A stretch of 64,000 nt of DNA from an uncultured Alphaproteobacteria bacterium (GCA_947588655.1 CANPYS010000001.1:6391-70390); one strand, 5' to 3'. Shown: positions 26,276 through 62,744, counted from the stretch's first letter. The notes: a model not told the origin generated them from the sequence alone. A program made the numbers and translations.

Positions 26276-26543
26276 AATCAACAACTTATCAACAAAATGC
26301 ATGCAAAAAAAGGTACCTTTAAATGTGCATTTTGTCAAGCAAAAAATTTTGAGATATTTCAAAAGGTTATTTTCTTGATGAAATGTGCATTTAAACGTAC
26401 GTTTTTTTGAGAAGATTCTCAAAGGTCATCCTGAACTCGTTTCAGGATCTCATAAAAAAAGATGCTGAAACAAGTTCAGCATGACATTTGGGGCGTTCAG
26501 CATGACGATTCGGATGGAGAACTTTATAATTAAGGAGTAAAGA
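26276..26543 (+). promoter_or_regulatory. conserved ~250-bp upstream cassette of paralog family (copy 1)
   Basis: AAATGTGCATTT at 26321-26332 and 26381-26392. TGAGAAGATTCTCA. Hairpin arm1 26424-26453 / A7 / arm2 26461-26485. TGACGATTCGG. RBS TAAGGAG. Confidence 0.75.
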
Positions 26544-27593
26544 ATGAAGTACGTTTTATTTTTAGTTATGGTTTTGTTTTCAAATCAGGCGGTGGCGCTG
26601 AATTGTGAAAAGCAACCGACATGTGAGGAGTTAAATTATTCCAAAGAAGATGATCCACAATGCGCCGATGACGGCTATATCTTATGTCCGTTTGACTTTT
26701 CCTATAAAAAATGTTTACAGCCTGATTGTGAAAAATTAGGTTTTACATCATCTGAAAAATCAGGTTGGTGTTCTGAAATTATTACTTGTCCGCAAGATTC
26801 TTCTTATACGGCTTGCAACTGTCTTAAGCCACGTTGCAACATCGGCGATGTGTTGTATGCGGACAGCTCTTGTGGCGATGTCAAAGATTACAGCGAAGAT
26901 AAAGTTGCGGTTGGTGTGGTTTATTACACAAACTGCGATGGTGGTGGCAAGGTGATTAGTCTTAAAGATTTAACGCTTGATTCAAACTATGTTTTTCACC
27001 CAACAGAGCCTTTTGGCAACACCGCTCTTTACAAGTTTCCTTGGGGACTTTCTGGCGTAACTGTTCCAGGCTTGAAATATAAGTGGGCTACTAATGAACA
27101 ATTCTTGCTCGCTCTTCAAACAAGAGATCCTGACTTTTTCAACGGCGAAAAAGATACGCAAACTTTGATTAATTTCAAGAAAGACTCTTGCTCTTATGAT
27201 GAAGGCACAAAAGGATATGCTGAGTATTGCGTGGCGACGGCGGCTTTGGCGGCGCATCAATTTTATCCGCTTGGCGTTGAGCCAAACAATACGATTGTCG
27301 GCGCAGGGCGTTGGTATTTGCCCTCTCTTGGCGAGCTAACCGAACTTTATGGCTATGATTATGACCAAGTTACGACATGGGATACTGGAAAAACGGGCAA
27401 AACAAAAGAAAAAGTCACTCAGACGCTTACAACGCTTGAAGGCAAAGCGGAACCTTTAAAAAATATTGAATACTGGGCTTCAATTGAATACTCTGGAGAT
27501 ATTGCTTATGAATTGAAAGCTGACGGTTCTATCAGCAAATATTATAAAAAAGATCCGCACTGCGCTGTCCGCGCCAGTTTGAACTTTCGGTAA
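26544..27593 (+). CDS. secreted Cys-rich paralog P1: conserved N-module plus DUF1566/Lcl-C-like C-terminal domain
   Basis: Signal peptide ...QAVA|LNCE. N-module NCEKQPTCEELNYSKEDDPQCADDGYILCPFDFSYKKCLQPDCEKLGFT. C-terminal WYLPSLGEL, YWASIEY and ...HCAVRASLNFR match DUF1566-type motifs. Confidence 0.8.
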   Translation: MKYVLFLVMVLFSNQAVALNCEKQPTCEELNYSKEDDPQCADDGYILCPFDFSYKKCLQPDCEKLGFTSSEKSGWCSEIITCPQDSSYTACNCLKPRCNIGDVLYADSSCGDVKDYSEDKVAVGVVYYTNCDGGGKVISLKDLTLDSNYVFHPTEPFGNTALYKFPWGLSGVTVPGLKYKWATNEQFLLALQTRDPDFFNGEKDTQTLINFKKDSCSYDEGTKGYAEYCVATAALAAHQFYPLGVEPNNTIVGAGRWYLPSLGELTELYGYDYDQVTTWDTGKTGKTKEKVTQTLTTLEGKAEPLKNIEYWASIEYSGDIAYELKADGSISKYYKKDPHCAVRASLNFR

Positions 27594-27597
27594 AAAG

Positions 27598-27636
27598 AAC
27601 CCCCTCTTTTCCAAGAGGGGCGTTTTTATTCTTCAA
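27598..27636 (+). terminator. rho-independent terminator after P1
   Basis: CCCCTCTTTTCCAAGAGGGG then CGTTTTTATT. Confidence 0.7.
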
Positions 27637-27831
27637 CAAAACCAGCTTGCAGTTTTTCCTTTTTAACACAAATGATGACGGCGGTTATTCAGCGGGACAC
27701 AGGCAAAAGAGCCTCCTTGCCTTCTTTTTGTCTTCCGGCACATTGTTTGCCGAAATTTGGCGTAAAATTATGCTGAGCGCGGTAGAACCCTAAAAAATTC
27801 AAGATTTTTTGAAGCCTAAAATTTTATAAAA

Positions 27832-28102
27832 TTCAAGAATTTATCAACAAAATGTGTGCAAAAAAAGGTACCTTTAAATGTGCATTTTGTCAAGCAAAAA
27901 ATTTTGAGATATTTCAAAAGGTTATTTTCTTGATGAAATGTGCATTTAAACGTACGTTTTTTTGAGAAGATTCTCAAAGGTCATCCTGAACTCGTTTCAG
28001 GATCTCATAAAAAGAGATGCTGAAACAAGTTCAGCATGACTTTTGGGGTCGTTTCAGGATGACGATTCGGATGGGAGGACTTTTTTATTTAAGGAGTAAA
28101 AA
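27832..28102 (+). promoter_or_regulatory. conserved upstream cassette (copy 2)
   Basis: Near-identical to 26276-26543 including both hairpins and palindromes. Confidence 0.75.
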
Positions 28103-29029
28103 ATGAAGTACGTTTTAATTTTAATAGCAATTTTGTTTTCAAGTCAGGCGGTGGCGCTGAATTGTGAAAAGCAACCAACCTGCGAGGAGTTAAATTATTC
28201 CAAGGAAGACGATCCTCAATGTGCTGAGGACGGTTATATTCTCTGTCCGTTTGACTTTTCCTATAAAAAATGTTTACAGCCTGATTGTGAAAAATTAGGC
28301 TTTACACAATCGGATAAATCATTATGGTGCAATGAAATTGCTTCCTGTCCGTTCAACGCCTCTTACACGCTTTGTAATCGCAAAGCCGTGCAATGTAAGG
28401 TTGGCGATGTGTATTACGCAGATGACACTTGCGGTTCTTCCAATAATCTGGACACTACTAAAATTCCGGTCGGCGTTGTGTTTTATGTGACAGCTGACGG
28501 ACGTCACGGTCGCGTTTTGGCTTTTGATGAGTTCCAAGGAGCCTACAGCGCAATGAATTCAATCAGCGCCGCCTTACCTTTGTTTACCTGTGAACAAGTG
28601 TTGGACGGTTTGAAAAAAGGAAATCCGGATTTATATGATGGTCAAGCGCAAACCCAAAAAGTTGCCGCGCTTGATTCGCAAAGTGCCGCCGCCAAAGCTC
28701 TTGAATATTATCCTCAAGAAATTGACCCTGATACACCTTACACCGGCAAAGGAAACTGGTATTTGCCAACACTTGGCGAGTGGGAGTGGCTTTATGACCA
28801 TGAATTTATAGACAAATGCCCGATTTCATCAGGTGGAAATAATTACGCCAACATTCCTATTGTACCTGTCTTAAAAAAGCTTGGAAAGAGCGGCATGCGG
28901 ACAGACCGTTTTTGGTCGATTAACTTATTTTCATCTAAACAAGCGCTTTATTTTGGCACCACTTACGGGGATATAGATTCCAAACTTCTGCTTTATCAAT
29001 ATTATATTCGTCCGATTATGAAATTTTAA
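28103..29029 (+). CDS. secreted Cys-rich paralog P2
   Basis: First ~95 aa about 90% identical to P1. Divergent middle. C-terminal WYLPTLGEWEWLY, FWSINLF and ...YYIRPIMKF. Confidence 0.8.
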   Translation: MKYVLILIAILFSSQAVALNCEKQPTCEELNYSKEDDPQCAEDGYILCPFDFSYKKCLQPDCEKLGFTQSDKSLWCNEIASCPFNASYTLCNRKAVQCKVGDVYYADDTCGSSNNLDTTKIPVGVVFYVTADGRHGRVLAFDEFQGAYSAMNSISAALPLFTCEQVLDGLKKGNPDLYDGQAQTQKVAALDSQSAAAKALEYYPQEIDPDTPYTGKGNWYLPTLGEWEWLYDHEFIDKCPISSGGNNYANIPIVPVLKKLGKSGMRTDRFWSINLFSSKQALYFGTTYGDIDSKLLLYQYYIRPIMKF

Positions 29030-29072
29030 GCGGATGAGCAGATTTTTTTCTTCCTTACGATTGTAAAATGAA

Positions 29073-29107
29073 TTTTCCCGATTACTTTTTATGAAAAATC
29101 GGGAGAA
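29073..29107 (+). promoter_or_regulatory. possible RBS-sequestering hairpin in the adiC leader
   Basis: TTTTCCCGATT (29073-29083) pairs with AATCGGGAGAAAA (29097-29109). The GGGAG Shine-Dalgarno lies in the 3' arm, 5 nt before ATG 29110. Confidence 0.35.
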
Positions 29108-29109
29108 AA

Positions 29110-30588
29110 ATGATGGATGAAAAAAATAAAATCGGTCTTCTACCGGCAACTTTGATGGTTGCCGGCAATATGATGGGTTCAGGTGTGTTTATGTTACCTG
29201 CCAATTTGGCGGGCATCGGGAGCATTGCCATTTTCGGGTGGTTGATTACCGTTGTGGGCGCTATTTGTTTGGCGCTTGTCTTTTCCAAACTGACGCAAAT
29301 TTATCCGGCGGCGGGCGGTCCTTATGCCTATGCCAAAAAAGCGTTCGGTAATTATATGGGTTATCAGACAAACTTGGTTTATTGGCTTGCCAATGTGGTT
29401 GGCAATGTGGGGCTTGCCGTGGCGGGACTCGGCTATTTAACAACTTTTTTCCCCACGCTTAAAGATCCGCTTGTCATGGCGTTTGCGCAAATTGCCGTCA
29501 TATGGTTTTTTACTTATGCCAATATTTTAGGTCCGAATGTGGTTGGCCGTTTGCAAAGTATGACCACCATTTTAGCCTTAGTTCCGATTATCGGTATGGC
29601 GCTTTTGGGCTGGTTTTGGTTTCATGCCGATACGTATATGCAAGGTTGGAATGTGACCGGTAAGAGCGATCTGACGGCTATTGGGATGACGCTTAATTTT
29701 ACGCTTTGGGCGTTTATCGGTGTGGAAAGCGCTTCCGTTTCAACGGCGGTGGTGAAAAACCCCACCCGCAATGTGCCGATTGCAACAGTTGCCGGTGTGA
29801 TTTTAGCCGCTGTTTGTTATGTTTTGAGCTCCAGCGCGATTATGGGCATTATTCCGAGCTCAGAGCTGATGTCTTCTTCCGCGCCGTTTTCGCAAGCGGT
29901 TGCCGTTGCCCTTGGTCCGACAGCCGGCGATATTGTGGCGGCATGCGCCGCGATCGGTTGTCTTGGTTCGCTCGGCGGTTGGACGCTTTTGGTCGGGCAG
30001 ACGGCAAAAGCCGCCGCTGATGACGGTTTGTTCGGGCGCGTGTTTGCCTGCACCAACAGCAAGGGCGTGCCGGCTTCCGGCTTGGCTATTGTCGCCGGCA
30101 TTATGACATTGCAGGTTTTGGCAACCATGTCGCCGACTGCCTCGGAGCAATTTGGCAAAATTGCTTCCATTGCCGTGATTTTGACCTTATTGCCTTACAT
30201 TTATTCTTCGGTGGCAATTAAGATTATCGGGCGCGATAAAATAGATGCTAAGCAAGGCGTGTTTTATACGGTTGTCGGCTTAATCGGTGCTTTTTATTCC
30301 ATGGCGGCAATGATTGGTTCTGATCCGGCGCAAACCCGTTGGGCTTTGATGTTTGTGATTGCTACCATTATCTTTTATGAATTGGCGGAAGAGCGTCAAT
30401 GGGCGATGGGCGAGAACCCCGAAGGCATTAAATGTATTGTGCCATCATGGGTGCGTCATTTAACTTTGCTTGTGACCATTTTGGCGCTTGTTGTTATGTT
30501 TTGGATTTCGTTTGGCGAAAACAGCGCGCTTATTCACCGCACCAAGAGCCACTTTCCGGTGGTTGAACAGCTTGAAAATTTGAGTTAA
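29110..30588 (+). CDS. adiC: arginine:agmatine antiporter-like APC-family transporter
   Basis: Long near-identical blocks to E. coli AdiC: KIGLLPATLMVAGNMMGSGVFMLPANLA, VAGVILAAVCYVLSSSAIMGIIP, GCLGSLGGWTLLVGQTAKAAADDGLF. Confidence 0.75.
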   Translation: MMDEKNKIGLLPATLMVAGNMMGSGVFMLPANLAGIGSIAIFGWLITVVGAICLALVFSKLTQIYPAAGGPYAYAKKAFGNYMGYQTNLVYWLANVVGNVGLAVAGLGYLTTFFPTLKDPLVMAFAQIAVIWFFTYANILGPNVVGRLQSMTTILALVPIIGMALLGWFWFHADTYMQGWNVTGKSDLTAIGMTLNFTLWAFIGVESASVSTAVVKNPTRNVPIATVAGVILAAVCYVLSSSAIMGIIPSSELMSSSAPFSQAVAVALGPTAGDIVAACAAIGCLGSLGGWTLLVGQTAKAAADDGLFGRVFACTNSKGVPASGLAIVAGIMTLQVLATMSPTASEQFGKIASIAVILTLLPYIYSSVAIKIIGRDKIDAKQGVFYTVVGLIGAFYSMAAMIGSDPAQTRWALMFVIATIIFYELAEERQWAMGENPEGIKCIVPSWVRHLTLLVTILALVVMFWISFGENSALIHRTKSHFPVVEQLENLS

Positions 30589-30602
30589 GAAAGGAGTGAG
30601 AA

Positions 30603-32900
30603 ATGCATCAAAATAAAAATCCGTTCGGGGTGAAAATTTTACTTTCCTATGAGGAGCTTGAGCGCGATACCGCGGCGGCGCGCGCGGTTCGGCATTTGCA
30701 GACCGATTTGGCAGATGATGATACGGAAATTATTGTCGCAGAACATTTAGAAGACGCTCGCGCTATTTTTGCAAGCGACGCCGGCATTCAATGTGTGTTG
30801 ATGGGCCTAGAATGTCAGTATTGCTCCAACACTTATGAGGTTTTGGATGTTCTTCGGGCGCAAAATCCGACCGTGCCGATTTTTTTGATGTCAAGCCGCA
30901 ATATGGCCTCGCAAATTCCGACTTCTGCGCTTGAAAAAGTGAGCGATTTTATTTGGCTTTTGGAAGATACCACCGATTTTATTTCAGGACGAATCCGCGC
31001 CGCGATTGAGCGTTATCGTTCCTTTATCCTGCCGCCGATGTTTAAGGCATTGGCACGGTTTGCCAAAATTCATGAATATTCGTGGCACACCCCGGGGCAT
31101 ACAGGCGGAACGGCGTTTTTGAAATCTGCCGTCGGACGCGACTTTTTTAATTTTTTCGGCGAACAGGCGTTTCGTTCCGATCTTTCCATTTCCGTTGGCG
31201 AGCTTGGCTCTATGCTTGACCATACTGGTCCTATCGGGGAAAGCGAAAAATATATGGCGCGTGTGTTTAATTCTACCCGCAGTTATCATGTTACCAACGG
31301 TTCGTCCACCTCTAACCGCATTATCTTAACGGCAAGTGTGACACGTGATGAAATTTGCTTGTGTGATAGAAATTGTCACAAATCGGTAGAGCATGCGATG
31401 ACGCTTTCAGGCGCTATCCCGACTTATTTAGTTCCGACCCGCAACCAATACGGCATTATCGGCCCGATTTTGCCCGAGCGTTTAACGCCCGAGGCCGTTA
31501 AGCAGGCCATTGATGAAAACCCGCTTGTGAGCGAGCGCATTGATCATCAGCCCAAGCATGCCATTATCACAAACTCCACTTATGATGGCTTGTGTTATAA
31601 TGTTACGCAAGTGCGCGACTTGTTAGGGCAAAGTGTTGACCGCTTGCATTTTGACGAGGCTTGGTACGGATATGCGCGCTTTAATCCGATTTATGAGGGG
31701 CGTTATGCGATGTGTTGCAATCCGCAAACTTATGATAAATCGCAACCAACTGTTTTTGCCACACAATCCACGCACAAGCTTTTGGCGGCCTTCTCGCAAG
31801 CCTCTATGATTCATGTGTTGGAAGGGCGCAACCCGATTGACCATGTCCGCTTTAACGAATCGCTGATGATGCACTCGTCCACATCGCCGCTTTATCAGAT
31901 TATTGCCTCTAATGATGTGAGCGCGGCAATGATGGATAACGGAGGTGGCAAAACCTTGACCGATATTTCCATTCGTGAAGCGATTGATTTCAGAAAAACA
32001 GTGGCGCGAATCCATAAAGAATATGGCGATAATGATGATTGGTTCTTTAATATTTGGCAACCGGATCAGGTTCGTATCCCCGAAACGGGTGAAAAAGTGC
32101 CGTTTTATGAAGCGCCTGACGACCTTTTGGCGACTATGCCCGATTGTTGGGTTTTGCACCCTGATGAAGCTTGGCACGGTTTCGGCGCTATTGCAGATGG
32201 TTATTGCATGCTTGATCCGATTAAAGTTTCAGTCACAACCCCCGGCGTGATGCCTGATTCATCGCTTGCCGATTGGGGCATTCCGGCGGCGCTTTTAACG
32301 GCTTATTTGGATAATAAGGGCATTATTGTTGAAAAGACGACCGATTTTACCATTCTGTTCCTCTTCTCAATGGGTGTGACAAAAGGGAAATGGGGCACGC
32401 TCTTAAACGCTCTCTTTGCCTTTAAAGATGATTATGACAACAATGTGCCGCTTTCGCGCATCATGCCCAAAATTTACCACGCAGATGAAACAAAATATGC
32501 TTCCATGGGGTTGCGTGATTTAAGTGTGGAAATGTTTGAGGCGATGAAATCTTTGGGAACAACCAAAGCCCTTTCGGCGGCGTTTTCCGTCCTTCCGCAT
32601 CCGGATATGACGCCTGTTGAAACGCATGAGCAACTTGTTAAAAATAATGTGGAATCGCTTACGCTTGATGAAATGGAGAATCGCACCGTTGCCACCGGCG
32701 TTGTTCCATATCCGCCAGGAATCCCGATGTTAATGCCTGGTGAAAATGCAGGCCCTTCAGACGGTCCGCTTCTCGGTTATCTCAAAGCCTTGGAAGCCTT
32801 TGATCAAAGATTCCCTGGGTTTGGGCATGATACGCATGGGGTGGAAGTAGTGGCTGGTTCCGGCAAATACCGCATTCTATGTTTAAGAAAAGGCGTATAA
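30603..32900 (+). CDS. adiA: biodegradative arginine (Orn/Lys/Arg family) decarboxylase, fold-I PLP enzyme with N-terminal wing domain
   Basis: 765 aa. Blocks WLLEDTTDFISGRIRAAIERYR, KIHEYSWHTPGH, DRNCHKS, RLHFDEAWYGYARFNPIY and IPYPPGIPML align best with AdiA. PLP-Lys in ...STHKLL... Confidence 0.65.
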   Translation: MHQNKNPFGVKILLSYEELERDTAAARAVRHLQTDLADDDTEIIVAEHLEDARAIFASDAGIQCVLMGLECQYCSNTYEVLDVLRAQNPTVPIFLMSSRNMASQIPTSALEKVSDFIWLLEDTTDFISGRIRAAIERYRSFILPPMFKALARFAKIHEYSWHTPGHTGGTAFLKSAVGRDFFNFFGEQAFRSDLSISVGELGSMLDHTGPIGESEKYMARVFNSTRSYHVTNGSSTSNRIILTASVTRDEICLCDRNCHKSVEHAMTLSGAIPTYLVPTRNQYGIIGPILPERLTPEAVKQAIDENPLVSERIDHQPKHAIITNSTYDGLCYNVTQVRDLLGQSVDRLHFDEAWYGYARFNPIYEGRYAMCCNPQTYDKSQPTVFATQSTHKLLAAFSQASMIHVLEGRNPIDHVRFNESLMMHSSTSPLYQIIASNDVSAAMMDNGGGKTLTDISIREAIDFRKTVARIHKEYGDNDDWFFNIWQPDQVRIPETGEKVPFYEAPDDLLATMPDCWVLHPDEAWHGFGAIADGYCMLDPIKVSVTTPGVMPDSSLADWGIPAALLTAYLDNKGIIVEKTTDFTILFLFSMGVTKGKWGTLLNALFAFKDDYDNNVPLSRIMPKIYHADETKYASMGLRDLSVEMFEAMKSLGTTKALSAAFSVLPHPDMTPVETHEQLVKNNVESLTLDEMENRTVATGVVPYPPGIPMLMPGENAGPSDGPLLGYLKALEAFDQRFPGFGHDTHGVEVVAGSGKYRILCLRKGV

Positions 32901-33042
32901 CCGCTCATCTAGAGGCGTTTTTACGGGTCTCGGGAAATTCACGTACCTCTTTTGTACGCTGGAATTTCCCTCGCCCTTAAAACACCTCTATCTAAACGGT
33001 TCTCCGCCTTTCCACGGCTTGGGAGAAAATTAAGAAAACGTC

Positions 33043-33078
33043 CATTTCAAAATGGACGTTTTTTGTTTTTGTGCTTAC
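33043..33078 (+). terminator. rho-independent terminator after adiA (repeat copy also at 42757-42790)
   Basis: AAAACGTCCATTTCAAAATGGACGTTTTTTGTTTTTG. Confidence 0.7.
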
Positions 33079-33109
33079 GAATAAAAAAATCAAGTAAAAT
33101 CAAAGAAAT

Positions 33110-33377
33110 GTCTCAAAAAAACGTACGTCATTATTTACAACTTGTCAAGTGAAAAAAATTGGGTTTTTCAATAACTTATTTTTGCAAAAAAATGCACAAA
33201 AAAACGTACGTTTTTTTGAGATAGGGAAAAACTTTCTCTCAAACGTCATGCTGAGCTTTGGTGCGTTAGCACCATTCGCGAAGCATCCAGGAACAGTATA
33301 GCTAATTTGTTGTCCTGGACTCTTCGCCTGCAGCTCAGAGTGACGATTCGGCAGAGTTCGTAATTAAGGAGAAAAAA
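33110..33377 (+). promoter_or_regulatory. degenerate copy of the upstream cassette (copy for P3)
   Basis: Retains AAACGTACGTTTTTTTGAGA core, GTCATGCTGA, TGACGATTCGG and TAAGGAG. Central hairpins replaced. Confidence 0.55.
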
Positions 33378-34562
33378 ATGAAGTATGTTTTATTTTTGAT
33401 GTTGGTATTGTTTTCAAGTCAGGCGGTGGCGCTTAATTGTGAAAGGCAACCGACTTGTGAAGAATTGGGTTATTCTACGCAAAATAATCCAAACTGTTTA
33501 GATGACGGTTATTTAATTTGCCCGTTTGATTCTAATTATAAGAAATGCGTCAACTTTAGTTGCGAATCGCTCGGGTTTACGCTATCCGATAAATCGGGCT
33601 GGTGCGCTGAAACAATAGAATGTAAAGGTGATAAAAGTTATACTCTTTGCAAAACATCTTGTATTGCTTGGGATTCTGATACGCTTTCCATGCTTGCCGA
33701 ATCGGGCAAATGTAAGCTCATCACGATGAAAAATGACATCACGCTTTCAGAAGATAAGCTCAACGTTTCCGCAAACACCATGATTGACGGTGGTGGGCAT
33801 ACGCTTCATGTGTCGGCGAATATAAACCCGATAGATTTACAAGCGAACAGCGGTCTCAAAAATCTTAACTTGGATGTAAAGGGTACCGGCGTTAAACAAG
33901 GTTATATTCTTCTTCCGCAAGGTAATGGAGTTCTCTTTGAAAACCTGACGGTTGCGGTTTCTGGCATGACACAAAAATATAATGCAGGGCTTGTTGGTAT
34001 GTCAAATTTTTCTGCCGAATTTAGAGGTCAAACAAATCTGAATTCAAATTATTATAGTGTCTTTTTCAATAGTGATCATATTAACTTTACAAATGCGCAA
34101 GCCACTCTTTTTGCCGCTAATGATTTAATGAAAAGTTCCAACGTCACACTTCACAATTCCACACTTGATATTACAATGAGTACTGTTCTCATGACGCGCT
34201 CTAAATTAACGCTTTACAATTCCACACTCCATTTTACAGGCACACATTTGTTCTGGACAGGAAGTTCAACGGTAGAAAATGTCTTGACAATCGGGGAGGG
34301 TTCCACCGCGGTGATTAAAGTTTCAAACGGTCTGAATATGGAAAGTACTAGAAAATCAAATTTTGTGTTAAGCGGGACAGCAGATGCGCCAGCAAAGTTA
34401 GAAATTACGACACCTGATAAAAATAATAATGAAACATATATCACAGCTCATAACATAACGGATACGCTTGTCTTAAATAACAAGACATATCATCCAACGC
34501 AAACAGCTACAACGCTTATATCGGATGTTCCAAACTCAAGTTATTGGCGCGCTGTGCCATAG
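33378..34562 (+). CDS. secreted Cys-rich paralog P3: conserved N-module fused to parallel beta-helix-like C-terminal domain
   Basis: N-terminal 95 aa homologous to P1/P2/P4/P5 (NCERQPTCEELGYS...CPFD..YKKC). Remainder has repetitive NxT/beta-strand periodicity (LHNSTLDIT..., LYNSTLHFT...) and lacks the DUF1566 motifs. Confidence 0.7.
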   Translation: MKYVLFLMLVLFSSQAVALNCERQPTCEELGYSTQNNPNCLDDGYLICPFDSNYKKCVNFSCESLGFTLSDKSGWCAETIECKGDKSYTLCKTSCIAWDSDTLSMLAESGKCKLITMKNDITLSEDKLNVSANTMIDGGGHTLHVSANINPIDLQANSGLKNLNLDVKGTGVKQGYILLPQGNGVLFENLTVAVSGMTQKYNAGLVGMSNFSAEFRGQTNLNSNYYSVFFNSDHINFTNAQATLFAANDLMKSSNVTLHNSTLDITMSTVLMTRSKLTLYNSTLHFTGTHLFWTGSSTVENVLTIGEGSTAVIKVSNGLNMESTRKSNFVLSGTADAPAKLEITTPDKNNNETYITAHNITDTLVLNNKTYHPTQTATTLISDVPNSSYWRAVP

Positions 34563-34633
34563 AATGTTTTTATGAGTCTCGGCATAAATCTTTTTTTAAG
34601 TTTTCTCTTTTAAAATCATTTGCCGAGGTGTTT

Positions 34634-35248
34634 ATGGATTACGTTAAAATAGAAGGCGAGCGTTTTGTTGTCCGGTTGATGTATGCCGGCATGCAAAATA
34701 TGAGCGGTCGGGCTGTTTATCAGGAAACAGGCTGGGGAAATGTGGCGGTGGTGCATCGGGATTTGTTTGCGGCGTTGCAAAAGACGGTGCCTATTTTGGA
34801 AAAGCACAATCTTTATATGCTCATTTTTGATGCGTATCGCTTGCCTGATGCGCATAATATGTTGGTGCAAGCTGTACCGTTTGGTCTTTTTGCGCCTGAG
34901 CCGAAATTATCGGCGCATTGTCATGCCACGGCGGTGGACGTGTGTCTTGCCGATGAAAATCTTCAACCTCTGAAATATCCGACACCTGTTGATAATTATA
35001 CACCTCAAAATGCGGCGGCTGTTCGTTTTGGACATATCGCCCCTTTTGAAAGGGATATGCTTAAAGCCCGTCATGATTATCAAGACGCCGCACCCAAGGA
35101 AAAATCAAATCGTCTTTTCTTAAAAAAATTAATGGAAGGCGTTGGTTTGGAAAGCTTGGACTCGGAATGGTGGCATTATTCTTTGCCTGAAGGTCTTCTT
35201 GAGGAAAAATACCCGCTTATCAGTTTGTTTTCGGAAGATTTTGAATAA
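34634..35248 (+). CDS. D-alanyl-D-alanine dipeptidase (VanX/DdpX-like, M15D)
   Basis: SAHCHATAVD (SxHxxGxAxD-type zinc site) and EWWHY (E-W-H catalytic motif). Start at MDYVKIEG. Confidence 0.6.
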   Translation: MDYVKIEGERFVVRLMYAGMQNMSGRAVYQETGWGNVAVVHRDLFAALQKTVPILEKHNLYMLIFDAYRLPDAHNMLVQAVPFGLFAPEPKLSAHCHATAVDVCLADENLQPLKYPTPVDNYTPQNAAAVRFGHIAPFERDMLKARHDYQDAAPKEKSNRLFLKKLMEGVGLESLDSEWWHYSLPEGLLEEKYPLISLFSEDFE

Positions 35249-35249
35249 A

Positions 35250-35990: not shown

Positions 35991-36056
35991 GTCAAAACTC
36001 CTCAAAAATAAGCCGGAACAATCTCCGGCTTATGATATAGGCAATTTTTGAGCAAA

Positions 36057-42560: not shown

Positions 42561-42756
42561 CCACGAGGGAATGCGTCTAATGGGCGCCTTTTGGAAATGC
42601 GTCTAGCTGGCACCTAGAGCAATTTAAGGGGCAAAAGTGTCCTCACGTACGCTTTTAGTACGCTGTGGTACTTTTGCCCCTTAAATCACTCTATCTGCAC
42701 ACGCTATCCGCATTTCCGAGGACTATGATTAAAAATAAGGATTCGATATTAAAAAA

Positions 42757-42790
42757 ACGTCCATTTCAAAATGGACGTTTTTTGTTGCTT
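42757..42790 (+). terminator. rho-independent terminator after nifJ (same hairpin as 33043-33078)
   Basis: AAAACGTCCATTTCAAAATGGACGTTTTTTGTTG. Confidence 0.65.
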
Positions 42791-42799
42791 TAATATAGC

Positions 42800-42908
42800 A
42801 ATTTAAAGGTACCTTTAAATTGATGCGATTCGACAGCCACCGAACGTCATGCTGAACTTGTTTCAGCATCTCTTTGATGAGATCCCGAAACAAGTCCGGA
42901 ATGACAAA
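42800..42908 (-). repeat. orphan reverse-oriented fragment of the paralog upstream cassette (double-hairpin part)
   Basis: GTCATGCTGAACTTGTTTCAGCATCTCTTTGATGAGATCCCGAAACAAGTCCGGAATGAC is the reverse complement of the arm1-A-arm2 element. No paralog gene follows on the minus strand. Confidence 0.6.
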
Positions 42909-42921
42909 GAAAAAACAAGAA

Positions 42922-43387
42922 AATCAATAACTTATCATCAAAACATGTGCAAAAAAAGGTACCTTTAAATGTGCAATTTGTCAAGAAAAATTTTTGAGAT
43001 TTTTCAAAAGGTTATTTTCTTGATAAAACGTGCATTTAAACGTACGTTTTTTTGAGAAATGTGTATAGCGGCACATCTAAAGCCGTTTTTTCAAGTTCGG
43101 AAAATTCACGTACGTCTATGTACGCTCAAATTTTCCTCACTTTTGAAACGACTTTATCTGCACCACTCTCCACATTTCTTTGGCTAGAACAAGAGAGGGA
43201 AAGTCTCTCTAAAATGTCATTTCCAAACTCGTTTCGGGATCTCATAAAAAGAGATGCTGAAACAAGTTCAGCATGACATTTGGGGTGTTTTGGGGATGAC
43301 GATTCGGAAGAGTTTGTTGTCCTAGACTCTTCGCTGACGCTCAGAGTGACCATGACGGCGGAAATAGTGACGAACAAGGAGGAAAGA
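42922..43387 (+). promoter_or_regulatory. upstream cassette (copy for P4), interrupted by ~150 bp of unrelated repeat sequence
   Basis: First half 42922-43050 matches the cassette (AAATGTGCAATTT..., AACGTGCATTTAAACGTACG). 43055-43205 differs (shares gaaaattcacgtac...tacgct with 32926-32990). Arm2/TGACGATTCGG/RBS resume at 43205-43387. Confidence 0.6.
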
Positions 43388-44506
43388 ATGAGGTATGTTT
43401 TATTTTTAATAGCAATTTTGTTTTCAAGTCAGGCGGTAGCGCTGAATTGTGAAAAGCAACCAACCTGTGAAGAATTAAATTATTCTAAAGAAGATGATCC
43501 GCAATGTGCCGATGACGGCTATATCTTATGTCCGTTTGACTTCTCATACAAAAAATGTGCACAGCCTGATTGCTCAAAAATGGGCTTTACACACTCCAAT
43601 AAATCCGCTTGGTGTGAAGAAATTATTTATTGCCCGCAAGATAACACATATTCTCTTTGCAAAACACTCCAACTGCAATGTGAAATCGGCGATGTCTTTT
43701 TTGCCGACCGCACCTGTGGCAAAGCTTCCGATTGGTCAAAAGAAAGTGGCAAAATCCCTGTGGGCATTGTTTATTATGTGGAAGAGGGCGGGCGCCACGG
43801 ACGCGTGATAAACCTCAAAAACCTTTGGCGCGGTTCGGATTATCTTTTTCATGCTGATAGCCCTTACAGTGGCTTAAGTGATTACATGCCTTGGGGCTAT
43901 CAAAATTATGACCTTACATCTCTTAAAAACTATGATGGCTCGCCTGAAATTTTGAATGCTTTGCAAACGCGCGATCCCGATTTGTACAAAGGCGAAGAAA
44001 ACACAAAGCTGATTTTAGAAGCCAAAGCTCCGGATTGTGCTTATCAAAAGAATACCAAAGAATACGCTCAGTATTGTGTGCCGACGGCGGCTTTGGCGGC
44101 ACATCAATTTTATCCGCCTGAAGCCGGTGCGGATAACCTTTATGTCGGGCAGGGTAAGTGGTATTTGCCTTCATGGGGCGAGTGGATGGAAGTTTATGGC
44201 TATGATAATAGTCAAATTGTGTGTGGCGGACCTCAAAATTGTACGACGGCAGATTCAGCAAATAATGAGGGAACGTCAGGCGCTGTCGGTGATCATAAAA
44301 AATTAATTGAAACTGCGCTTCAAACACTTCAAGAAAAAGGCGCTGGTGCCGAAAAACTTGTCAGAGGTCCTTTTTGGAGTTCCACGGAATATGATTCATT
44401 CAGTGCGCGTACGTTTTATATGGACTCAGGCCATCGTTCAGCATACAATAAAAAGAATGCTGATAATAATTATCATGCGTACGTTCGCGCAAGCCTGAAG
44501 TTTTAA
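43388..44506 (+). CDS. secreted Cys-rich paralog P4 (DUF1566/Lcl-C-like C-terminus)
   Basis: AAGGAGG RBS, MRYVLFLIAILFSSQAVA|LNCE. C-terminal KWYLPSWGEWMEVYGY, FWSSTEY and ...YHAYVRASLKF. The longer ORF-track start at 43280 has no RBS. Confidence 0.8.
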   Translation: MRYVLFLIAILFSSQAVALNCEKQPTCEELNYSKEDDPQCADDGYILCPFDFSYKKCAQPDCSKMGFTHSNKSAWCEEIIYCPQDNTYSLCKTLQLQCEIGDVFFADRTCGKASDWSKESGKIPVGIVYYVEEGGRHGRVINLKNLWRGSDYLFHADSPYSGLSDYMPWGYQNYDLTSLKNYDGSPEILNALQTRDPDLYKGEENTKLILEAKAPDCAYQKNTKEYAQYCVPTAALAAHQFYPPEAGADNLYVGQGKWYLPSWGEWMEVYGYDNSQIVCGGPQNCTTADSANNEGTSGAVGDHKKLIETALQTLQEKGAGAEKLVRGPFWSSTEYDSFSARTFYMDSGHRSAYNKKNADNNYHAYVRASLKF

Positions 44507-44759
44507 AAAGGCTATGGAACGCGTCTAGCGGACACCTAGAGCAATTTAATGGGCAAAACTGTCCTCACGTACGTCTTATGGTCTAACTCGTTTCGGTCTT
44601 GCTCGTAAGTTTTGCGTAAAACGCAAACTAACTTGTTTCGGTCACCGCTCTGTAACGCTTGCCGTCAAATCCGATTTTTTCTGGCGCTTTTTGTTGTTTC
44701 TATTCGCCTCATTATCTGTCTTTCCTAAGGTTTACTAACGTCCGTCATGACCAAAATTT

Positions 44760-44966
44760 CTAAATGATTGAGGCATTGACGTATAGGGTTTGGCTTTTTC
44801 TGATTTGATAAAAGTTTTTCGCGGACACTTTCCAAGCGTTTTTGAATTTCTTTATCTTGATAAATATTGCTCTTATTTTCTTTAGTATGTACTGTTTGAC
44901 GTCTGTAATCAGCTCTTGCATAATTTTGTCGGCGATAGGTGTTGCCTTTTCTTTTTCGTCGGCCAT
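44760..44966 (-). CDS. hypothetical small Lys-rich protein
   Basis: 68-aa ORF with AGGAG about 11 nt upstream. No recognised family, so low confidence. Confidence 0.25.
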   Translation of the reverse strand: MADEKEKATPIADKIMQELITDVKQYILKKIRAIFIKIKKFKNAWKVSAKNFYQIRKSQTLYVNASII

Positions 44967-45068
44967 TATTGTTACTCCTCTTATTTCAAGAGAACCAATA
45001 TAATTTAAGTATACCTTATTTATGTATAAAAGTCAATTAAAATGATGCTTGTTTACCGTAACGAATCA

Positions 45069-45102
45069 ACAAAAAAAGAGGTATGAAAATACCTCTTTTT
45101 TT
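45069..45102. terminator. palindromic terminator 3' of tRNA-Lys
   Basis: AAAAAAAGAGGTATGAAAATACCTCTTTTTTT, bidirectional. Confidence 0.6.
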
Positions 45103-45104
45103 GT

Positions 45105-45180
45105 TGGTGAGCGCGTCGGGATTCGAACCCGAGACCCTTTGATTAAAAGTCAAATGCTCTACCGACTGAGCTACGCACCC
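45105..45180 (-). tRNA. tRNA-Lys (anticodon UUU)
   Basis: The reverse complement folds as a cloverleaf: GGGTGCGTAGCTCAGTCGGTAGAGCATTTGACTTTTAATCAAAGGGTCTCGGGTTCGAATCCCGACGCGCTCACCA. Anticodon loop cTTTTaa, encoded CCA. Confidence 0.85.
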
Positions 45181-45334
45181 TTATACAATGTGCTGATATA
45201 TAAAAGATAATAAAACGCCTGTCAACAAAAAAAATAAAAAAAGTTAAAAAATTTAAAAAAGGTGTTTATTTGTTAAGAATTATGTGCTATTGTTAATTCC
45301 ATATGATGTGTTTAATTTATGTTAGAGGTTAAAA

Positions 45335-45646
45335 ATGGCTCAAAATCAACCGTCAGAAGATAGTCGCTATGATATTTTGCAAAATAATCGCGGCGATATT
45401 TTGATTATTTTATCGCAACGCAACGGTGGTCCTGAAAATCCGCTCTTTATTTATGACGGTTCTCAATACGCCCTTTTATACCGCAGTCACGAAAGTACGG
45501 TTTATTTTGACGATATTGCACCTGAAGCGCGCACACCTTTGAAATCTGTCTCTTCTATGAAGATTGTTGAAATTGAAAATGATGATGTCGTTCGTGAATA
45601 TTCCGTTCCTGTTCGGTTGGTTAAAAACGTTAAAGCCCTGATGTAG
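45335..45646 (+). CDS. hypothetical protein
   Basis: 103-aa ORF with RBS-like GAGGTTAAAAATG. No family recognised. Confidence 0.35.
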   Translation: MAQNQPSEDSRYDILQNNRGDILIILSQRNGGPENPLFIYDGSQYALLYRSHESTVYFDDIAPEARTPLKSVSSMKIVEIENDDVVREYSVPVRLVKNVKALM

Positions 45647-45701
45647 GCTTTCATAATTTAAAATGAGGGCTTTCAAGCCCTTATTTTTATATGAGGATAT
45701 T

Positions 45702-53900: not shown

Positions 53901-53908
53901 GCTTTATA

Positions 53909-53936
53909 AAAGAAAGCCCCGCTTACAAGCGGGGCT
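53909..53936. terminator. palindromic terminator between convergent genes
   Basis: AAAGAAAGCCCCGCTTACAAGCGGGGCTTATTTTT. Confidence 0.6.
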
Positions 53937-53941
53937 TATTT

Positions 53942-54211: not shown

Positions 54212-54381
54212 GATTTTCTCCTCATAACCCAAATAAGTATAAAATATGAAATCTTAAAAAGTGTTTAATGACAATGTAAATTTTTTTCTTGCATTTTAAA
54301 ATTTATCCACTAAAGTATGTAGAGTGTTGTTTAGTTATTAAGCAATACGTATAAGTTTAACTATATAAAAGGACGTTCTCT

Positions 54382-54906
54382 ATGAAGAAAATTTTATTAC
54401 TTGCCGGTGTGGCCAGTGTTGTTGCAATGAGTGCCAATGCCGCTAACTTTACACCTTATGTTGGTGTTGATTATAACTATTCTTTGGTTCACCATGATGC
54501 TTCCATGAATAACTGGATGTCTGGTCATGCCAATTCTGGTAGCCTTATTTTGGGTACAAGTTTTGGTCAATATGCCAGTGTTGAAGCTTTTTATCAGCTT
54601 TCTAAGAAAGAACACAAAGCTGATAAGCGTTCACAAATCCAAGCTTATGGTGCTGACGTTTTAGGTCATCTGCCTTTGGGTTGCATGGGCGAATGGGAAT
54701 TGCTTGGTTCTGCTGGTACAGGTTGGTACGATGCCAAATATAACAAAGATAATGATTCCGGTTGGGGCTATCGTTTAGGTGCTGGTGTTCAGTACAACTT
54801 TGCTAATAACTGGGCAGCTCGTGCTATGTATCGTCATGTTTGGGTGGATAAATCCGTCCTTGACTGCATGAATGAATTTTCTTTGGGTGTCAGATATTAT
54901 TTCTAA
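54382..54906 (+). CDS. small outer-membrane beta-barrel protein (same OmpA-like/Omp25 family as the 4442-5188 OMP)
   Basis: Signal peptide ...MSANA. FTPYVG first strand shared with the 4442 OMP. C-terminal ...GVRYYF. Confidence 0.65.
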   Translation: MKKILLLAGVASVVAMSANAANFTPYVGVDYNYSLVHHDASMNNWMSGHANSGSLILGTSFGQYASVEAFYQLSKKEHKADKRSQIQAYGADVLGHLPLGCMGEWELLGSAGTGWYDAKYNKDNDSGWGYRLGAGVQYNFANNWAARAMYRHVWVDKSVLDCMNEFSLGVRYYF

Positions 54907-55020
54907 GCCTTTAGAAAACTTGTTGATATTAGAATCGCGGTTTATAACCGCGATTCTTTTTTTGACTTTACGAAAAGATGAATTATTTTAAATGAAAGTG
55001 TCATTTTAAGGAGAATTTTT

Positions 55021-56481: not shown

Positions 56482-56627
56482 AAGATTAACGCTGAACTTT
56501 ACGGCAGGCGTTTAGGGCTTTCATTTTTAAACGTCTTTTTGACTATAAACTCAAATAGGGCTTGCGTTTTAAGATATGAGCGGTTATACTAATTTGAGTT
56601 TTAAAATAAATTAAGGAAAAATAAAAA

Positions 56628-58085: not shown

Positions 58086-58086
58086 C

Positions 58087-59415: not shown

Positions 59416-59900
59416 AGTGTCCGTTTTGCGGTTGTGATGACACCATTGTGAAGGATTCGCGCAATACTGATGACAATGCGGCTGTTCGTCGTCGGCGCGA
59501 GTGTCCGGAGTGCGGTTCGCGTTTTACCACGTTTGAGCGCGTCCAGCTCCGCGAGCTGATTGTGGTGAAAAAAAATGGCGAGCGCACTTTTTTTGACCGC
59601 GACAAGCTTTATCGCTCCATAGAACTTGCCGTGCGCAAACGCCCGATTTCGCCGGAGCGCGTGGATAAGGTGGTTAATTCTATTCAGCGCCGTTTTGAAA
59701 GTTCGGGCGAAAATGAAATTACAACTGTGGATATTGGCGAGGCGGTGATGGAGGCGCTTTCAAGGCTTGATCATATCGCTTATATTCGCTTTGCCTCGGT
59801 TTATAAGGACTTTAAGGAAGTGAAGGATTTTGAGGACTTTGTGGAAACTATTGATAATCTGGCAAAGCCTGTTTTAGAAAAGGATGAAGACAATGACTAA
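59412..59900 (+). CDS. nrdR: transcriptional repressor NrdR
   Basis: [17 protein letters not shown]...[14 protein letters not shown] zinc ribbon plus ATP-cone. Confidence 0.9.
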
Positions 59901-60387
59901 ATTTGTTTCAAAAAAAATCAGACGGAAGTCGGGTGCGCGGTTGGCCGCCGTACAGGCAACGTATATGATTGCTTATGGTCAACTTCCCGTTGAAACCGTG
60001 ATTAAAGACTTTGTGGAAGGGCGTGTCGGACGCTATGTGATTGAAGAAACAGGCCCTGCGGAAACAGAGGAGATGCTTGAGGTTGCGCCTATAGATGCCG
60101 AATATTTTGAAATGCTTGTGAAGGGTGTGCATCGCAAAAAACAAGATTTAGAGAAATCATTGGCGCAGTATCTTCATAATCAGCTTAAATTTGAACAAAT
60201 GGACGGCACGCTTCAGGCACTTTTGCTTTGCGCGGTTTATGAGCTGACCAATACTTTGGATATTGATACAAAAGTACTTATTCAGGAATATGTTGATTTG
60301 GCATACGCTTTCTTTAGCAAAAATGAGCCTAAAATGGTCAACGCCCTTTTGGATCAGATTGCCCATGCTGTTAGGGATGAAAAATGA
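59893..60387 (+). CDS. nusB: transcription antitermination factor NusB
   Basis: ...[15 protein letters not shown]... NusB signature and all-helical ~160 aa. Start ATG 59893 or 59884, overlapping the nrdR end. Confidence 0.75.
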
Positions 60388-60920
60388 GTTTGCTGCCGTT
60401 ATATGAATATCCGCACCCGATTTTGCGCCAAAAAGCTAAGCCGGTTGAAACCGTAGATGAAGAATTGCGTCGGTTTTTAGATGATATGCTTGAAACAATG
60501 TATGCGGATAAGGGCGTCGGGTTGGCGGCGCCACAAGTGGGCGTTTCAAAGCGTGTGATTGTGATTGACACGCATCAACATGAAGAAGATGAAAGTGGCG
60601 ATTTTCGTCCGGGGCAACCGATGTATCTTCTCAACCCTGAAATTGTTTGGCATTCGGAAGAAACAATTCTTTTTTGCGAGGGTTGTCTTTCCGTGCCGGG
60701 GCAAAATGCCGATGTGGAGCGCTTTCAAAGCGTTCGGGTGAAATATTTGGATTATGACGGCAATCCGCAGGAAATTGAGGCCTCTGATTATGAGGCCGTT
60801 GTGCTTCAGCATGAAATTGACCATTTAGACGGCATTTTATATATTGATCATTTGAGCCGTCTTAAACGAGATATGCTCTTAAAAAAGCTTAAAAAATATA
60901 GAGAAAGCCACGAAAAATAG
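60384..60920 (+). CDS. def: peptide deformylase
   Basis: GVGLAAPQVG, EGCLSVPG, QHEIDHLDG metal-binding motifs. Confidence 0.9.
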   Translation: MSLLPLYEYPHPILRQKAKPVETVDEELRRFLDDMLETMYADKGVGLAAPQVGVSKRVIVIDTHQHEEDESGDFRPGQPMYLLNPEIVWHSEETILFCEGCLSVPGQNADVERFQSVRVKYLDYDGNPQEIEASDYEAVVLQHEIDHLDGILYIDHLSRLKRDMLLKKLKKYRESHEK

Positions 60921-61007
60921 ATTTTAGTGCGCTTAATGAAAAAAAACGCTTGAAAAAAAGTAAGTTTGATATTTTAATCTATCTATAACCAGATGAAAGG
61001 ATGAAAA

Positions 61008-61625
61008 ATGCTGAAATATTTTTTATACATTTTACTTTTGTTAATTGTTGTTATTTTGGGTGCTTTTGTTTTTCATAAATATAAAGTAGAAGACCAAAAT
61101 AAAAAGGAGATGGCGCAATATATGGGCGAGCCCGTTATGCTTGAAAAAGATTTGGGGCGCGTTTTGGTTATTTATTACAGTTTAAATGGACATACGCGCG
61201 ATATTGCTGAAAAAATCCAAAGCCTTACAAACGGCGATATTTATGCTATTCAGACAGAGGAAAAATTTGAGACTAATTTTGGCTTTTATTTAGATGTCTT
61301 GAAACAACTTTATAACAAGCAATATCCTGAACTTTCAACCATGGCACCTGATGTTTCGTCTTATGATATTGTGTTTGTTGGTTTTCCGGTTTGGTGGTAT
61401 ACCATGGCAACGCCGGCGTATTCGTTCTTGAAACAGGCTGATTTTGGCACAACAAAAGTGGCTTTGTTCTCCACACAAGGGAGTAATTCGGGGCGCTTTT
61501 TCTTTGATTTTGCTAACAACGTTCAAGGTTCAAAACTTGTTTCTATGAAAGAGTTTAATAATCTGCCTCAAGAATATGATGAGGCTGTTCGGAATAAAGT
61601 TGCGGCTTGGTTGAATAGCTTGTAA
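61008..61625 (+). CDS. membrane-anchored flavodoxin-like protein (Flavodoxin_4-type)
   Basis: N-terminal TM (YFLYILLLLIVVILGAFVF), then VLVIYYSLNGHTRDIAEKI... and YDIVFVGFPVWWYTMATPA. Paralogous to 63071-63637. Confidence 0.6.
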   Translation: MLKYFLYILLLLIVVILGAFVFHKYKVEDQNKKEMAQYMGEPVMLEKDLGRVLVIYYSLNGHTRDIAEKIQSLTNGDIYAIQTEEKFETNFGFYLDVLKQLYNKQYPELSTMAPDVSSYDIVFVGFPVWWYTMATPAYSFLKQADFGTTKVALFSTQGSNSGRFFFDFANNVQGSKLVSMKEFNNLPQEYDEAVRNKVAAWLNSL

Positions 61626-61628
61626 TAA

Positions 61629-61660
61629 AAAATCCCTGCGTTAAGGCAGGGATTTTTTTC
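61629..61660. terminator. terminator hairpin (identical copy at 63025-63058)
   Basis: AAAAATCCCTGCGTTAAGGCAGGGATTTTTTT. Confidence 0.7.
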
Positions 61661-61670
61661 CTTAAGATTT

Positions 61671-62744
61671 TTAAAATGTTGTCATCGGGCGGATTCTATA
61701 GCTCCTATCTGTCCATTCTATAGCTGTTTTATAACTTCCAAGATTAAATGTCCAAAATGTTCTGCTATCAAAGAAAGTGGAAGAATAGTAATAGTTGGCA
61801 AGGGATTGCGCTTTCCCTTTTTGTTGAAGCCTAGATAATGTGGTGTTGATTTGATCAAGGTAAACTTGTTTGTAATCAGGCTGACGATTATATTCATTCT
61901 CCCAAACAAGTGTGGTATAACCTGTTCCAACAACATCTATCCATTCGCCTAAGGAAGGTACATACCATTTGCCTTTGCCCAAGTGCGCATCATCTGCCGA
62001 AACGCCTTCAGGATAAAAAGCCATAGCGGCTCTTGGCCCAGGGGTGTCGCAATACTCAGCATAACGAAGTGTGCCTTTCTTATCTGAAGGTTGGCAACCA
62101 TCGCCAATGGTTTGCGGAGTTTCAACAAAGGCGGCTTTTGTGGCGCTTAAGCCGTCCCAAAGCCAAGTGTCATGCTTTGTAAAGGCTGATAAAATGCTAT
62201 TTGTATTATAGGTGTGCGTTCCTAATCTTTCATAATGGTAACCACCGAATGGTATTTCTTTAATACTTCCGCCAAAGGGATTCTGTTCGTCAAAGGTGTA
62301 GTCATCTTGAAGTGTTAAATCGTTTAATGCAAGGATTTTGCCGTGCGTTCCCTCGGTGTTTACGGTTACCACCACGCCGACAGGTATTTTAGAACCATTT
62401 GAGTCATAATCTTTGGCATAACCGCAAGTCCCATCCGCATAATAAACATCACCAATTTCGCAAAGGGCTTTACATGCCGTGTAGGTTTTATCGTTCGGAC
62501 AAAAGGCAAGCTTGCCACACCAATCCGATTTTTCAGACTTTGTGTAACCCATTTTTTCACAATCAGGCTGTAAACATTTTTTATAAGAGAAGTCAAACGG
62601 ACAAAGAATATAACCGTCCTCAGCACATTGTGGATCATCTTCTTTGGCATAATTTAACTCCTCACAGGTTGGTTGCTTTTCACAATTCAGCGCCACTGCT
62701 TGCTTTGAAAATAAAATCATCATTAAAAATAAAACGTACTTCAT
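61671..62744 (-). CDS. secreted Cys-rich paralog P5 (DUF1566/Lcl-C-like C-terminus)
   Basis: TAAGGAG RBS, MKYVLFLMMILFSKQAVA|LNCEKQPTCEELNYAKEDDPQCAEDGYILCPFDFSYKKCLQPDCEKMGYT. KWYVPSLGEWIDV, YYSSTFFD, ...YRIRPMTTF. Confidence 0.8.
   Translation of the reverse strand: MKYVLFLMMILFSKQAVALNCEKQPTCEELNYAKEDDPQCAEDGYILCPFDFSYKKCLQPDCEKMGYTKSEKSDWCGKLAFCPNDKTYTACKALCEIGDVYYADGTCGYAKDYDSNGSKIPVGVVVTVNTEGTHGKILALNDLTLQDDYTFDEQNPFGGSIKEIPFGGYHYERLGTHTYNTNSILSAFTKHDTWLWDGLSATKAAFVETPQTIGDGCQPSDKKGTLRYAEYCDTPGPRAAMAFYPEGVSADDAHLGKGKWYVPSLGEWIDVVGTGYTTLVWENEYNRQPDYKQVYLDQINTTLSRLQQKGKAQSLANYYYSSTFFDSRTFWTFNLGSYKTAIEWTDRSYRIRPMTTF

Follow-up and report, generated by a model that had tools for sequence, protein, structure and literature searches.

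A 64,000-nt stretch of one contig from an uncultured Alphaproteobacteria bacterium (GCA_947588655.1, CANPYS010000001.1:6391-70390; hereafter the window) carries five paralogous genes for cysteine-rich proteins with a constant head and variable tails. Each protein consists of a signal peptide of the signal peptidase I (SPase-I) type, two tandem four-Cys repeats of ~35 aa and a variable domain. Analysis of the genes, their upstream regions and their homologs makes it probable that they belong to a lineage-restricted family of Sec-exported, disulfide-rich modular binding proteins, which would form a co-regulated surface or secreted glycan- or ligand-binding repertoire in an alphaproteobacterium that is probably gut-dwelling. 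Comparisons of paralogs and orthologs have shown, at the level of sequence, that the repertoire changes through recombination of segments at module boundaries, and that the 5' unit (an upstream cassette, the ribosome-binding site (RBS), the signal peptide and the head) is concerted within a lineage and block-swapped between lineages, with tails that recombine independently.

Members of the family

Member 1 (26544..27593, + strand) is a protein of 349 aa with a signal peptide, two four-Cys repeats (26601-26828) and a DUF1566/Lcl_C-like C-type-lectin-like domain; the gene has its own terminator at 27601-27620. Member 2 (28103..29029, +; 308 aa, head 28160-28387) has a shorter lectin-like domain in which part of the middle insert is missing; it is identical in sequence to P0061 and was found in independent assemblies. 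In member 3 (33378..34562, +; 394 aa) the head (33435-33653) is more diverged and a C-terminal right-handed beta-helix replaces the lectin-like domain. Member 4 (43388..44506, +; 372 aa) combines a head (43445-43672) with a lectin-like domain, was modelled with AlphaFold2 (AF2), and has a syntenic ortholog 3' of PFOR in GCA_947630965.1 (L007). Member 5 (61671..62744, - strand; 357 aa) likewise has a head (62469-62687) and a lectin-like domain. An earlier sequence-only reading of the window had listed these five genes, and all were present as open reading frames (ORFs) that start with M(K/R)YVLFL and have an AAGGAG RBS 7-8 nt upstream. A tblastn search with the head of member 1 returned these five copies in the window and no others (E 1e-43 to 1e-66).

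Longer ORF calls give spurious starts to members 4 (43280-43387) and 5 (62745-62828) by translating a hairpin of the cassette (P2, below). Database entries such as P0004, P0041 and P0093 are extended in the same way and carry false N-terminal peptides (MLKQVQHD...); starts are wrong in public annotations of the family.

An origin of the copies as an assembly artefact or a very recent duplication was rejected. Synonymous sites differ between the copies (pS, the proportion of synonymous differences, 0.3-0.6) and independent assemblies agree; one of them, L006, is 100% identical over 2669 nt that include copy 3 and its cassette.

Head module

The signal peptide ends in AVA↓LN, the Asn being residue -1 of the first Cys. 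The lipobox [LVI][ASTVI][GAS]C was not found at the signal peptide end, where the sequence reads ...QAVA↓LNC, and the AxA site is kept across the family, as the sequence-only reading had proposed. That reading had counted about 10 conserved Cys in a near-invariant 95-aa N-terminal module with more than 85% identity across copies. The number of Cys was close, since 11 between residues 21 and 110 are invariant (68 homologs). The identity was overstated: over 95-98 aa the heads share 66-80% identity with that of member 1, and the four lectin-type copies share 75-82% among themselves, giving 66-82% overall. Near-invariance is restricted to residues 20-58, which form repeat 1 (proportion of nonsynonymous differences, pN, 0.03), and does not extend to repeat 2 (pN 0.24).

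The head is an internal duplication in which residues ~24-57 match residues ~59-91 (profile-profile probability 96%, E 1.5e-9). The repeat consensus is P-x-C-E-x-L-G-[YF]-[ST]-x(4-7)-C-x(4-7)-C-P-x-D-x-x-Y-x-x-C. Searches of Pfam, NCBIfam and PDB sequences gave no match to the repeat, and the four-Cys repeat head is an undescribed domain. An exhaustive hidden Markov model (HMM) search of 1.84 billion representative clusters found the head in 287 clusters (counted at 50% identity; E<=1e-3). Its position in these clusters is always immediately C-terminal to the signal peptide, and the regions that follow it are roughly 100 to 2500 aa long and hardly ever contain a Pfam domain. Repeat copy number in relatives varies from 1 to 5, in tandem: P0085 has five repeats followed by a beta-helix, an ORF in L001 has four, and P0135 has two followed by 1700 aa of other Cys-rich repeats. 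One candidate from the representative search, P0129, was a false relative that carries HYR_4C repeats.

The head matches with a named source all come from metagenome-assembled genomes labelled 'Alphaproteobacteria bacterium'. A head search of the JGI metagenomes gave 5 distant loci, and a scan of GTDB representatives, a set from which the species of the window is absent, gave only relatives with 32-45% identity. In two distant relatives (L002 2054-2950 and L005 upstream of 3001) the gene just 5' of the head-bearing gene encodes a further secreted protein, which is extremely rich in Cys but lacks the head motif; exported proteins of the Cys-rich kind cluster in these genomes.

Variable tails

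Four copies carry the motifs WY(L/V)P(S/T).GE(L/W), (Y/F)(W/Y)S and a C-terminal (V/I)R(A/P)...F, as the sequence-only reading had described, and the C-terminus of member 3 (33378-34562) differs. In the AF2 model of member 4 (pLDDT 88) the lectin-like tail has a C-type-lectin-like fold, which superposes on the C-terminal domain of Lcl. Further structural matches included invasin, intimin, FGE-type proteins, TvpA, Mtd and many C-type lectins. A parallel, pectin-lyase-like beta-helix was found in member 3 only. The lectin-like domain also contains a family-specific helical insert of ~90 aa and extra Cys. None of the five window proteins has a collagen-like GXY repeat stalk; their N-terminal part is the two four-Cys repeats.

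The resemblance to DUF1566, Lcl and the Fibrobacter paralogous family that had been proposed for these tails was searched with HMMs and holds for the family more than for its members in the window. PF07603 was matched by 43 of 70 homologs at E<=0.01 (best 1.5e-9), and the family profile aligned with the Lcl structure 8q4e by sequence at E 2.5e-4, with GvVyyv..GrhgkV and avRasleF aligned to Lcl. Members 1, 2 and 4 scored 13.4, 12.8 and 16.4 bits against PF07603 (model positions 38-116) and did not reach the gathering score of 34.9; members 3 and 5 gave no match to this HMM. With TIGR02145 (cut-off 41.65 bits) only member 4 matched, at 14.2 bits (E 0.055). Because of these sub-threshold scores, the tails are filed as divergent members of the DUF1566/Lcl_C lectin-like superfamily and not as Lcl orthologs.

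Module shuffling and concerted evolution

Across 2278 pairs from 68 homologs, head identity and tail identity were uncorrelated (rho -0.13 and +0.10). Some pairs have tails that are 90% identical and heads that are 49-72% identical, and the opposite pattern was also seen. Repeat 1 of the window type occurs on 17 distinct tail groups. These results bear out the earlier proposal of paralogs that share a constant Cys-rich head and carry swappable tails.

The comparison of member 4 with its ortholog in L007 revealed a mosaic. The adjacent PFOR genes are 95.8% identical at the nucleotide level. Within the family gene, nucleotide identity is 99% for aa 92-145, 93-95% for aa 146-275, 72% for the tail (aa 276-372) and 58-68% for the signal peptide and both repeats. 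The L007 lineage has its own cassette sequence, RBS (AGAAAGGGAAAA) and signal peptide (MRYVLILL...), which are common to four paralogs from the same samples (P0002, P0022, a 355-aa gene and P0032); the head type, too, is specific to each lineage. In addition, a remnant of an older, L007-type cassette (42750..42906, +) lies 5' of the complete cassette of member 4 and retains a terminator, one GGTACC box (the inter-box segment is deleted) and a P2-like hairpin. The ortholog mosaic, the cassette remnant and the lineage-specific L007 5' units together point to concerted evolution, or gene conversion, and block exchange of the 5' unit.

Selection was estimated by region with the pairwise Nei-Gojobori method. 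Within the window repeat 1 has a pN of 0.03 and a pS of 0.51, which indicates very strong purifying selection on this repeat; repeat 2 has a pN of 0.24 and a pS of 0.60, and the signal peptide has a pS of 0.27. The sequence-only reading had attributed the divergent middle segments to diversifying selection. The paralogous tails in the window gave omega values of 0.1-0.8 with dS mostly saturated, and positive selection on the tails was not supported in what is a weak test. The variable parts of member 4 gave an omega of 0.4-0.5 against the close ortholog. Mosaic recombination was demonstrated instead. The most variable part is the C-terminal ~100 residues.

The size of the family in the genome could be bounded indirectly. 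Further window-type heads occur at two loci, both at broken contig ends: P0003, which adjoins nitroreductase and ArgRS genes, and P0047, which lies 5' of mraZ in a sample that also holds an exact copy of member 3. These two loci imply that the genome holds more than five members.

The L007 contig also differs from the window beside the family gene. There, from the member-4 ortholog to birA, L007 has ~10 kb (11150-21028) with eight extra genes, none of which is in the window; four have no Pfam match, and the others include DUF362, radical SAM and HAD hydrolase genes and one more. The corresponding window segment (44507-45660) instead has a tRNA (45108-45180) and AT-rich repeats. The L007 gene block is a strain-variable island.

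Upstream cassette

A shared cassette of ~270 nt precedes every copy, as the sequence-only reading had noticed. It contains a 106-nt palindrome (P1), a hairpin of ~75 nt (P2) and the RBS. The layout of P1 is CAAAAAAA-GGTACC-TTTAAATGTGCATTTTGTCAAG ... CTTGATGAAATGTGCATTTAAA-CGTACG-TTTTTTTG. In cassette 1 (26271..26543, +) P1 spans 26304-26409 (A7-GGTACC ... TTGTCAA ... CGTACG-T7) and is followed by P2 (~26417-26493) and the RBS AAGGAG. Cassette 2 (27826..28102, +) is 94% and cassette 5 (62745..63018, -) 90% identical to cassette 1; the three are 90-94% identical to one another, a level that exceeds that of the coding heads. Cassette 3 (33099..33377, +) is only about 71% identical, has two CGTACG boxes 83 bp apart with TTGTCAA 20 nt past box 1, and differs from the others in its leader hairpins. 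Cassette 4 (42920..43387, +) consists of P1 (42949-43054), a 150-nt insert (43059-43207), P2 (43208-43308), an extra hairpin and the RBS.

The two lineages agree in spacing, with 83-84 bp between the SGTACS boxes and TTGTCAA exactly 20 nt past box 1. The cassette RNA is predicted to fold at -84.6 kcal/mol (z -9.0). The sequence variants were too few to show covariation in the hairpins. No Rfam family matched the cassettes, the only matches in the window being the transfer-messenger RNA (tmRNA) and two tRNAs. The cassette was absent from the distant relatives examined, and its pattern had 0 matches in the JGI metagenomes. TTGTCAA is conserved, yet no conserved -10 element follows it. From its architecture, the cassette is a candidate for a shared operator/promoter region with a structured leader, and most likely one regulator would control all copies through it. 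An origin of P1 from a miniature inverted-repeat transposable element (MITE) was considered as the main explanation and rejected, because the paralogs of the second lineage keep the box1-TTGTCAA-box2 architecture at fixed spacing in a cassette of different sequence.

Other small elements were found around the cassettes. The 43059-43207 insert splits cassette 4 between P1 and P2 and has copies 5' of other family members, with 95-99% identity at the P0003 and P0047 loci. A relative of this insert (75%) lies at 32895-33012, just 5' of cassette 3. On L010 insert sequence occupies 1-119, and on L011 and L012 it stands at the contig starts; contigs of other assemblies break within the insert. A different element of ~230 nt (26040-26275), flanked by two similar hairpins (AAAAAACAMCAATTACTTTTGKTGTTTTTT), lies between the two copies of a cassette start (26008-26047, which repeats 26276-26315). 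With 82% identity it matches part of the leader of a family gene in the other lineage; its positions outside the window are L016 4716-4884 and L017 1701-1869 (reverse orientation). A partial copy is found at 44597-44662, just 3' of member 4. The ~230-nt element resembles a small mobile element of the MITE type with family leaders as its target.

Genomic setting

The family copies are chromosomal and dispersed among housekeeping genes, which include those for lysine decarboxylase, PFOR, GreA, DHFR/ThyA, RNase J, RecJ, Fe-hydrogenase, MurC, NrdR, NusB and Def. The neighbours 3' of the family members comprise a paralog, a tRNA and genes for an amino-acid permease, an M15 peptidase and a flavodoxin. 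The M15 gene, an ORF of the D-Ala-D-Ala dipeptidase family with a TTG start (34544-35248, +), overlaps the final 19 nt of member 3, which suggests possible co-transcription. A neighbour of this type is unique to member 3 among the family members.

An Rfam scan detected a two-piece (permuted) alpha-type tmRNA at 5445-6060 (-), which places the organism in the Alphaproteobacteria. Its intervening segment contains a 78-nt direct repeat (5680-5757 and 5791-5868, 90% identical). A type III restriction-modification pair (Res helicase and N6/N4 methylase; 8767-12689, -) coincides with the lowest-GC stretch of the window (32-35% vs ~42%) and is probably an acquired island. Other envelope proteins are encoded at 4442-5221 (-), 6218-8755 (+) and 54382-54906 (+): they are an 845-aa autotransporter with a Chlamydia-PMP-type repeat and two small outer-membrane beta-barrel proteins. 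These genes show that the organism has surface-display routes besides the lectin-like family.

Proposed function and alternative explanations

Since the head always comes first after the signal peptide, precedes unrelated passengers and co-varies by lineage, a shared role in export, anchoring or oligomerisation is suggested, which the constant head would perform towards a lineage-specific partner. The variable tails would differ in the glycan or protein ligands that they bind, whether on host mucus, on host cells or on other microbes. Their likeness to binding modules of extracellular adhesins (Lcl, 4eps, Bd2740, invasin/intimin and the binding region of the serine-rich repeat protein, SRRP) is consistent with such a use, and the shared cassette would bring all copies under one regulator. 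Ligand binding and surface localisation of the proteins are predictions from sequence and from these analogies.

Several observations weigh against this interpretation. No lipobox, beta-barrel, sorting motif or secretion system, including genes of a type II secretion system (T2SS), was found in the window, where the SPase-I signal is the one export determinant of the proteins. A sigma-70 scan of the cassettes found only a non-conserved site that overlaps the RBS of copy 1. The window proteins fall individually under the thresholds of PF07603 and TIGR02145, and Lcl, which has a collagen-like stalk and no disulfides, offers an analogy limited to the head domain. Repeat 1 has a dS of about 0.9, so homogenisation is not recent, and purifying selection with partner co-evolution could give much of the pattern.

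The main alternative, which we regard as unlikely, is that the proteins reside in the periplasm or envelope and bind the cell's own peptidoglycan, lipopolysaccharide or capsule intermediates, with the head as a disulfide-stabilised spacer. It would agree with a Sec/SPase-I signal as the only export determinant found, with no outer-membrane anchor or secretion determinant, and with the cell-wall functions of some neighbours (the M15 peptidase that overlaps the end of member 3, an LD-carboxypeptidase and MurC). A large, strain-variable and recombining repertoire is, however, typical of a variable external ligand and not of a conserved envelope component, and the nearest structures are extracellular adhesins. 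The adhesin-like part of the adhesin/toxin-like repertoire named by the sequence-only reading is reasonable. The toxin part fared worse. Polymorphic toxin or bacteriocin-like effectors do share the architectural logic of a constant N-terminal trafficking domain, variable toxic C-termini and many alleles, but the tails here are binding folds (C-type-lectin-like and beta-helix) without a match to any toxin or enzyme family, the genes that follow are unrelated housekeeping genes, and no small immunity-like gene is consistently found 3' of the copies; this explanation is very improbable.

The sequence-only reading had also suggested contingency regulation through the cassette, and copies switched by homopolymer slippage or by inversion between the cassette inverted repeats were considered as phase-variable loci. 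In favour of this, the inverted repeats of the cassette are 35 nt long, A7/T7 tracts are present, and the T-run after box 2 varies among paralogs (T7, T8 and T9). The sole A/T run of >=9 in the window (62940-62948) lies in the P1 loop of cassette 5, just past TTGTCAAGG and directly after the conserved TTGTCAA. Long A/T homopolymers are strongly depleted in the window as a whole (one run >=9 vs 29 +/- 7 in dinucleotide-preserving shuffles). Homopolymer tracts of 7 are too short for efficient slippage in contingency loci. Genes and cassettes alike lack simple-sequence repeats, a scan of window ORFs turned up no recombinase, and the inverted repeats enclose only about 34 bp. Three loci agree exactly between independent assemblies, with no indels or inversions. 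Contingency switching is not supported by these results and is improbable, the A/T run in cassette 5 being the one lead towards it. Least probable is that a diversity-generating retroelement (DGR) diversifies the tails. In human microbiomes, the variable proteins of DGRs carry DUF1566 more often than any other Pfam domain, and 4eps is similar to such proteins (PMC4159848); TvpA and Mtd are among the structural matches, and the most variable residues are C-terminal. Against this, neither a reverse transcriptase among the ORFs nor a template-repeat copy of any 3' end was found within the 64 kb, and the tail variation spans whole segments with indels, unlike adenine-specific mutagenesis.

Comparison with known systems

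Adhesin repertoires made of paralogs that join a constant to a variable part are common. Among the nearest known systems is the C-terminal domain of Legionella pneumophila Lcl (PDB 8q4e; PF07603). Lcl has been described as a T2SS-secreted, surface-associated adhesin that binds glycosaminoglycans and whose C-terminal domain contains DUF1566 (PMC11162425). Its N-terminal helix and collagen-like triple-helical stalk stand where the window family has paired four-Cys repeats as stalk or anchor; the lectin-like domain of the window adds the helical insert and extra Cys; and Lcl is a single gene, unlike the shuffled multigene set of the window. BACOVA_04982 of Bacteroides ovatus (PDB 4eps; Bacteroidota), deposited as a fimbrial protein, is 17% identical and has N-terminal pilin-like domains instead of a Cys-rich head. 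The MAT chimeric fibre proteins of Bdellovibrio bacteriovorus are long, trimeric and phage-tail-fibre-like, with S74 peptidase chaperone domains and no Cys-rich head, in an organism and life style that differ from those of the window family. One of them, Bd2740 (PDB 8oks), forms a surface-displayed fibre that ends in a trimeric C-type-lectin tip (PMC10769870). The FISUMP family of Fibrobacter succinogenes (TIGR02145) and the DUF1566 families of Leptospira likewise form large within-genome paralog sets of the same lectin-like superfamily; they are mostly lipoproteins and lack the four-Cys head. Among beta-solenoid adhesins, the binding region of the Limosilactobacillus reuteri SRRP (PDB 5nxk) is 17% identical, and the window protein has no serine-rich repeat or LPXTG context.

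Significance

The family is a variation on the known repertoire of a constant anchor with a variable adhesive tip, and current ideas are not overturned. What is new is a Cys-rich N-terminal repeat domain, definable as a family, that marks at least 287 protein clusters (50% identity), together with a clean natural case of module-boundary recombination and of concerted evolution of a 5' regulatory-plus-coding unit. A further and rather doubtful possibility is that the head serves as a docking domain of a new type, by which many unrelated binding domains are plugged into a single lineage-specific partner for surface display or export, perhaps by the invariant odd Cys near the mature N-terminus, and that the 5' unit is a portable expression-and-display head spreading by gene conversion. 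If so, any tail would gain one regulator and one display route, and tails would swap freely between strains. The conserved two-box, operator-like cassette delimits a small regulon and offers a handle for finding its regulator. To our knowledge, gut-associated uncultured Alphaproteobacteria are almost unstudied, and the family is a candidate means by which these bacteria may recognise host or microbial surfaces.

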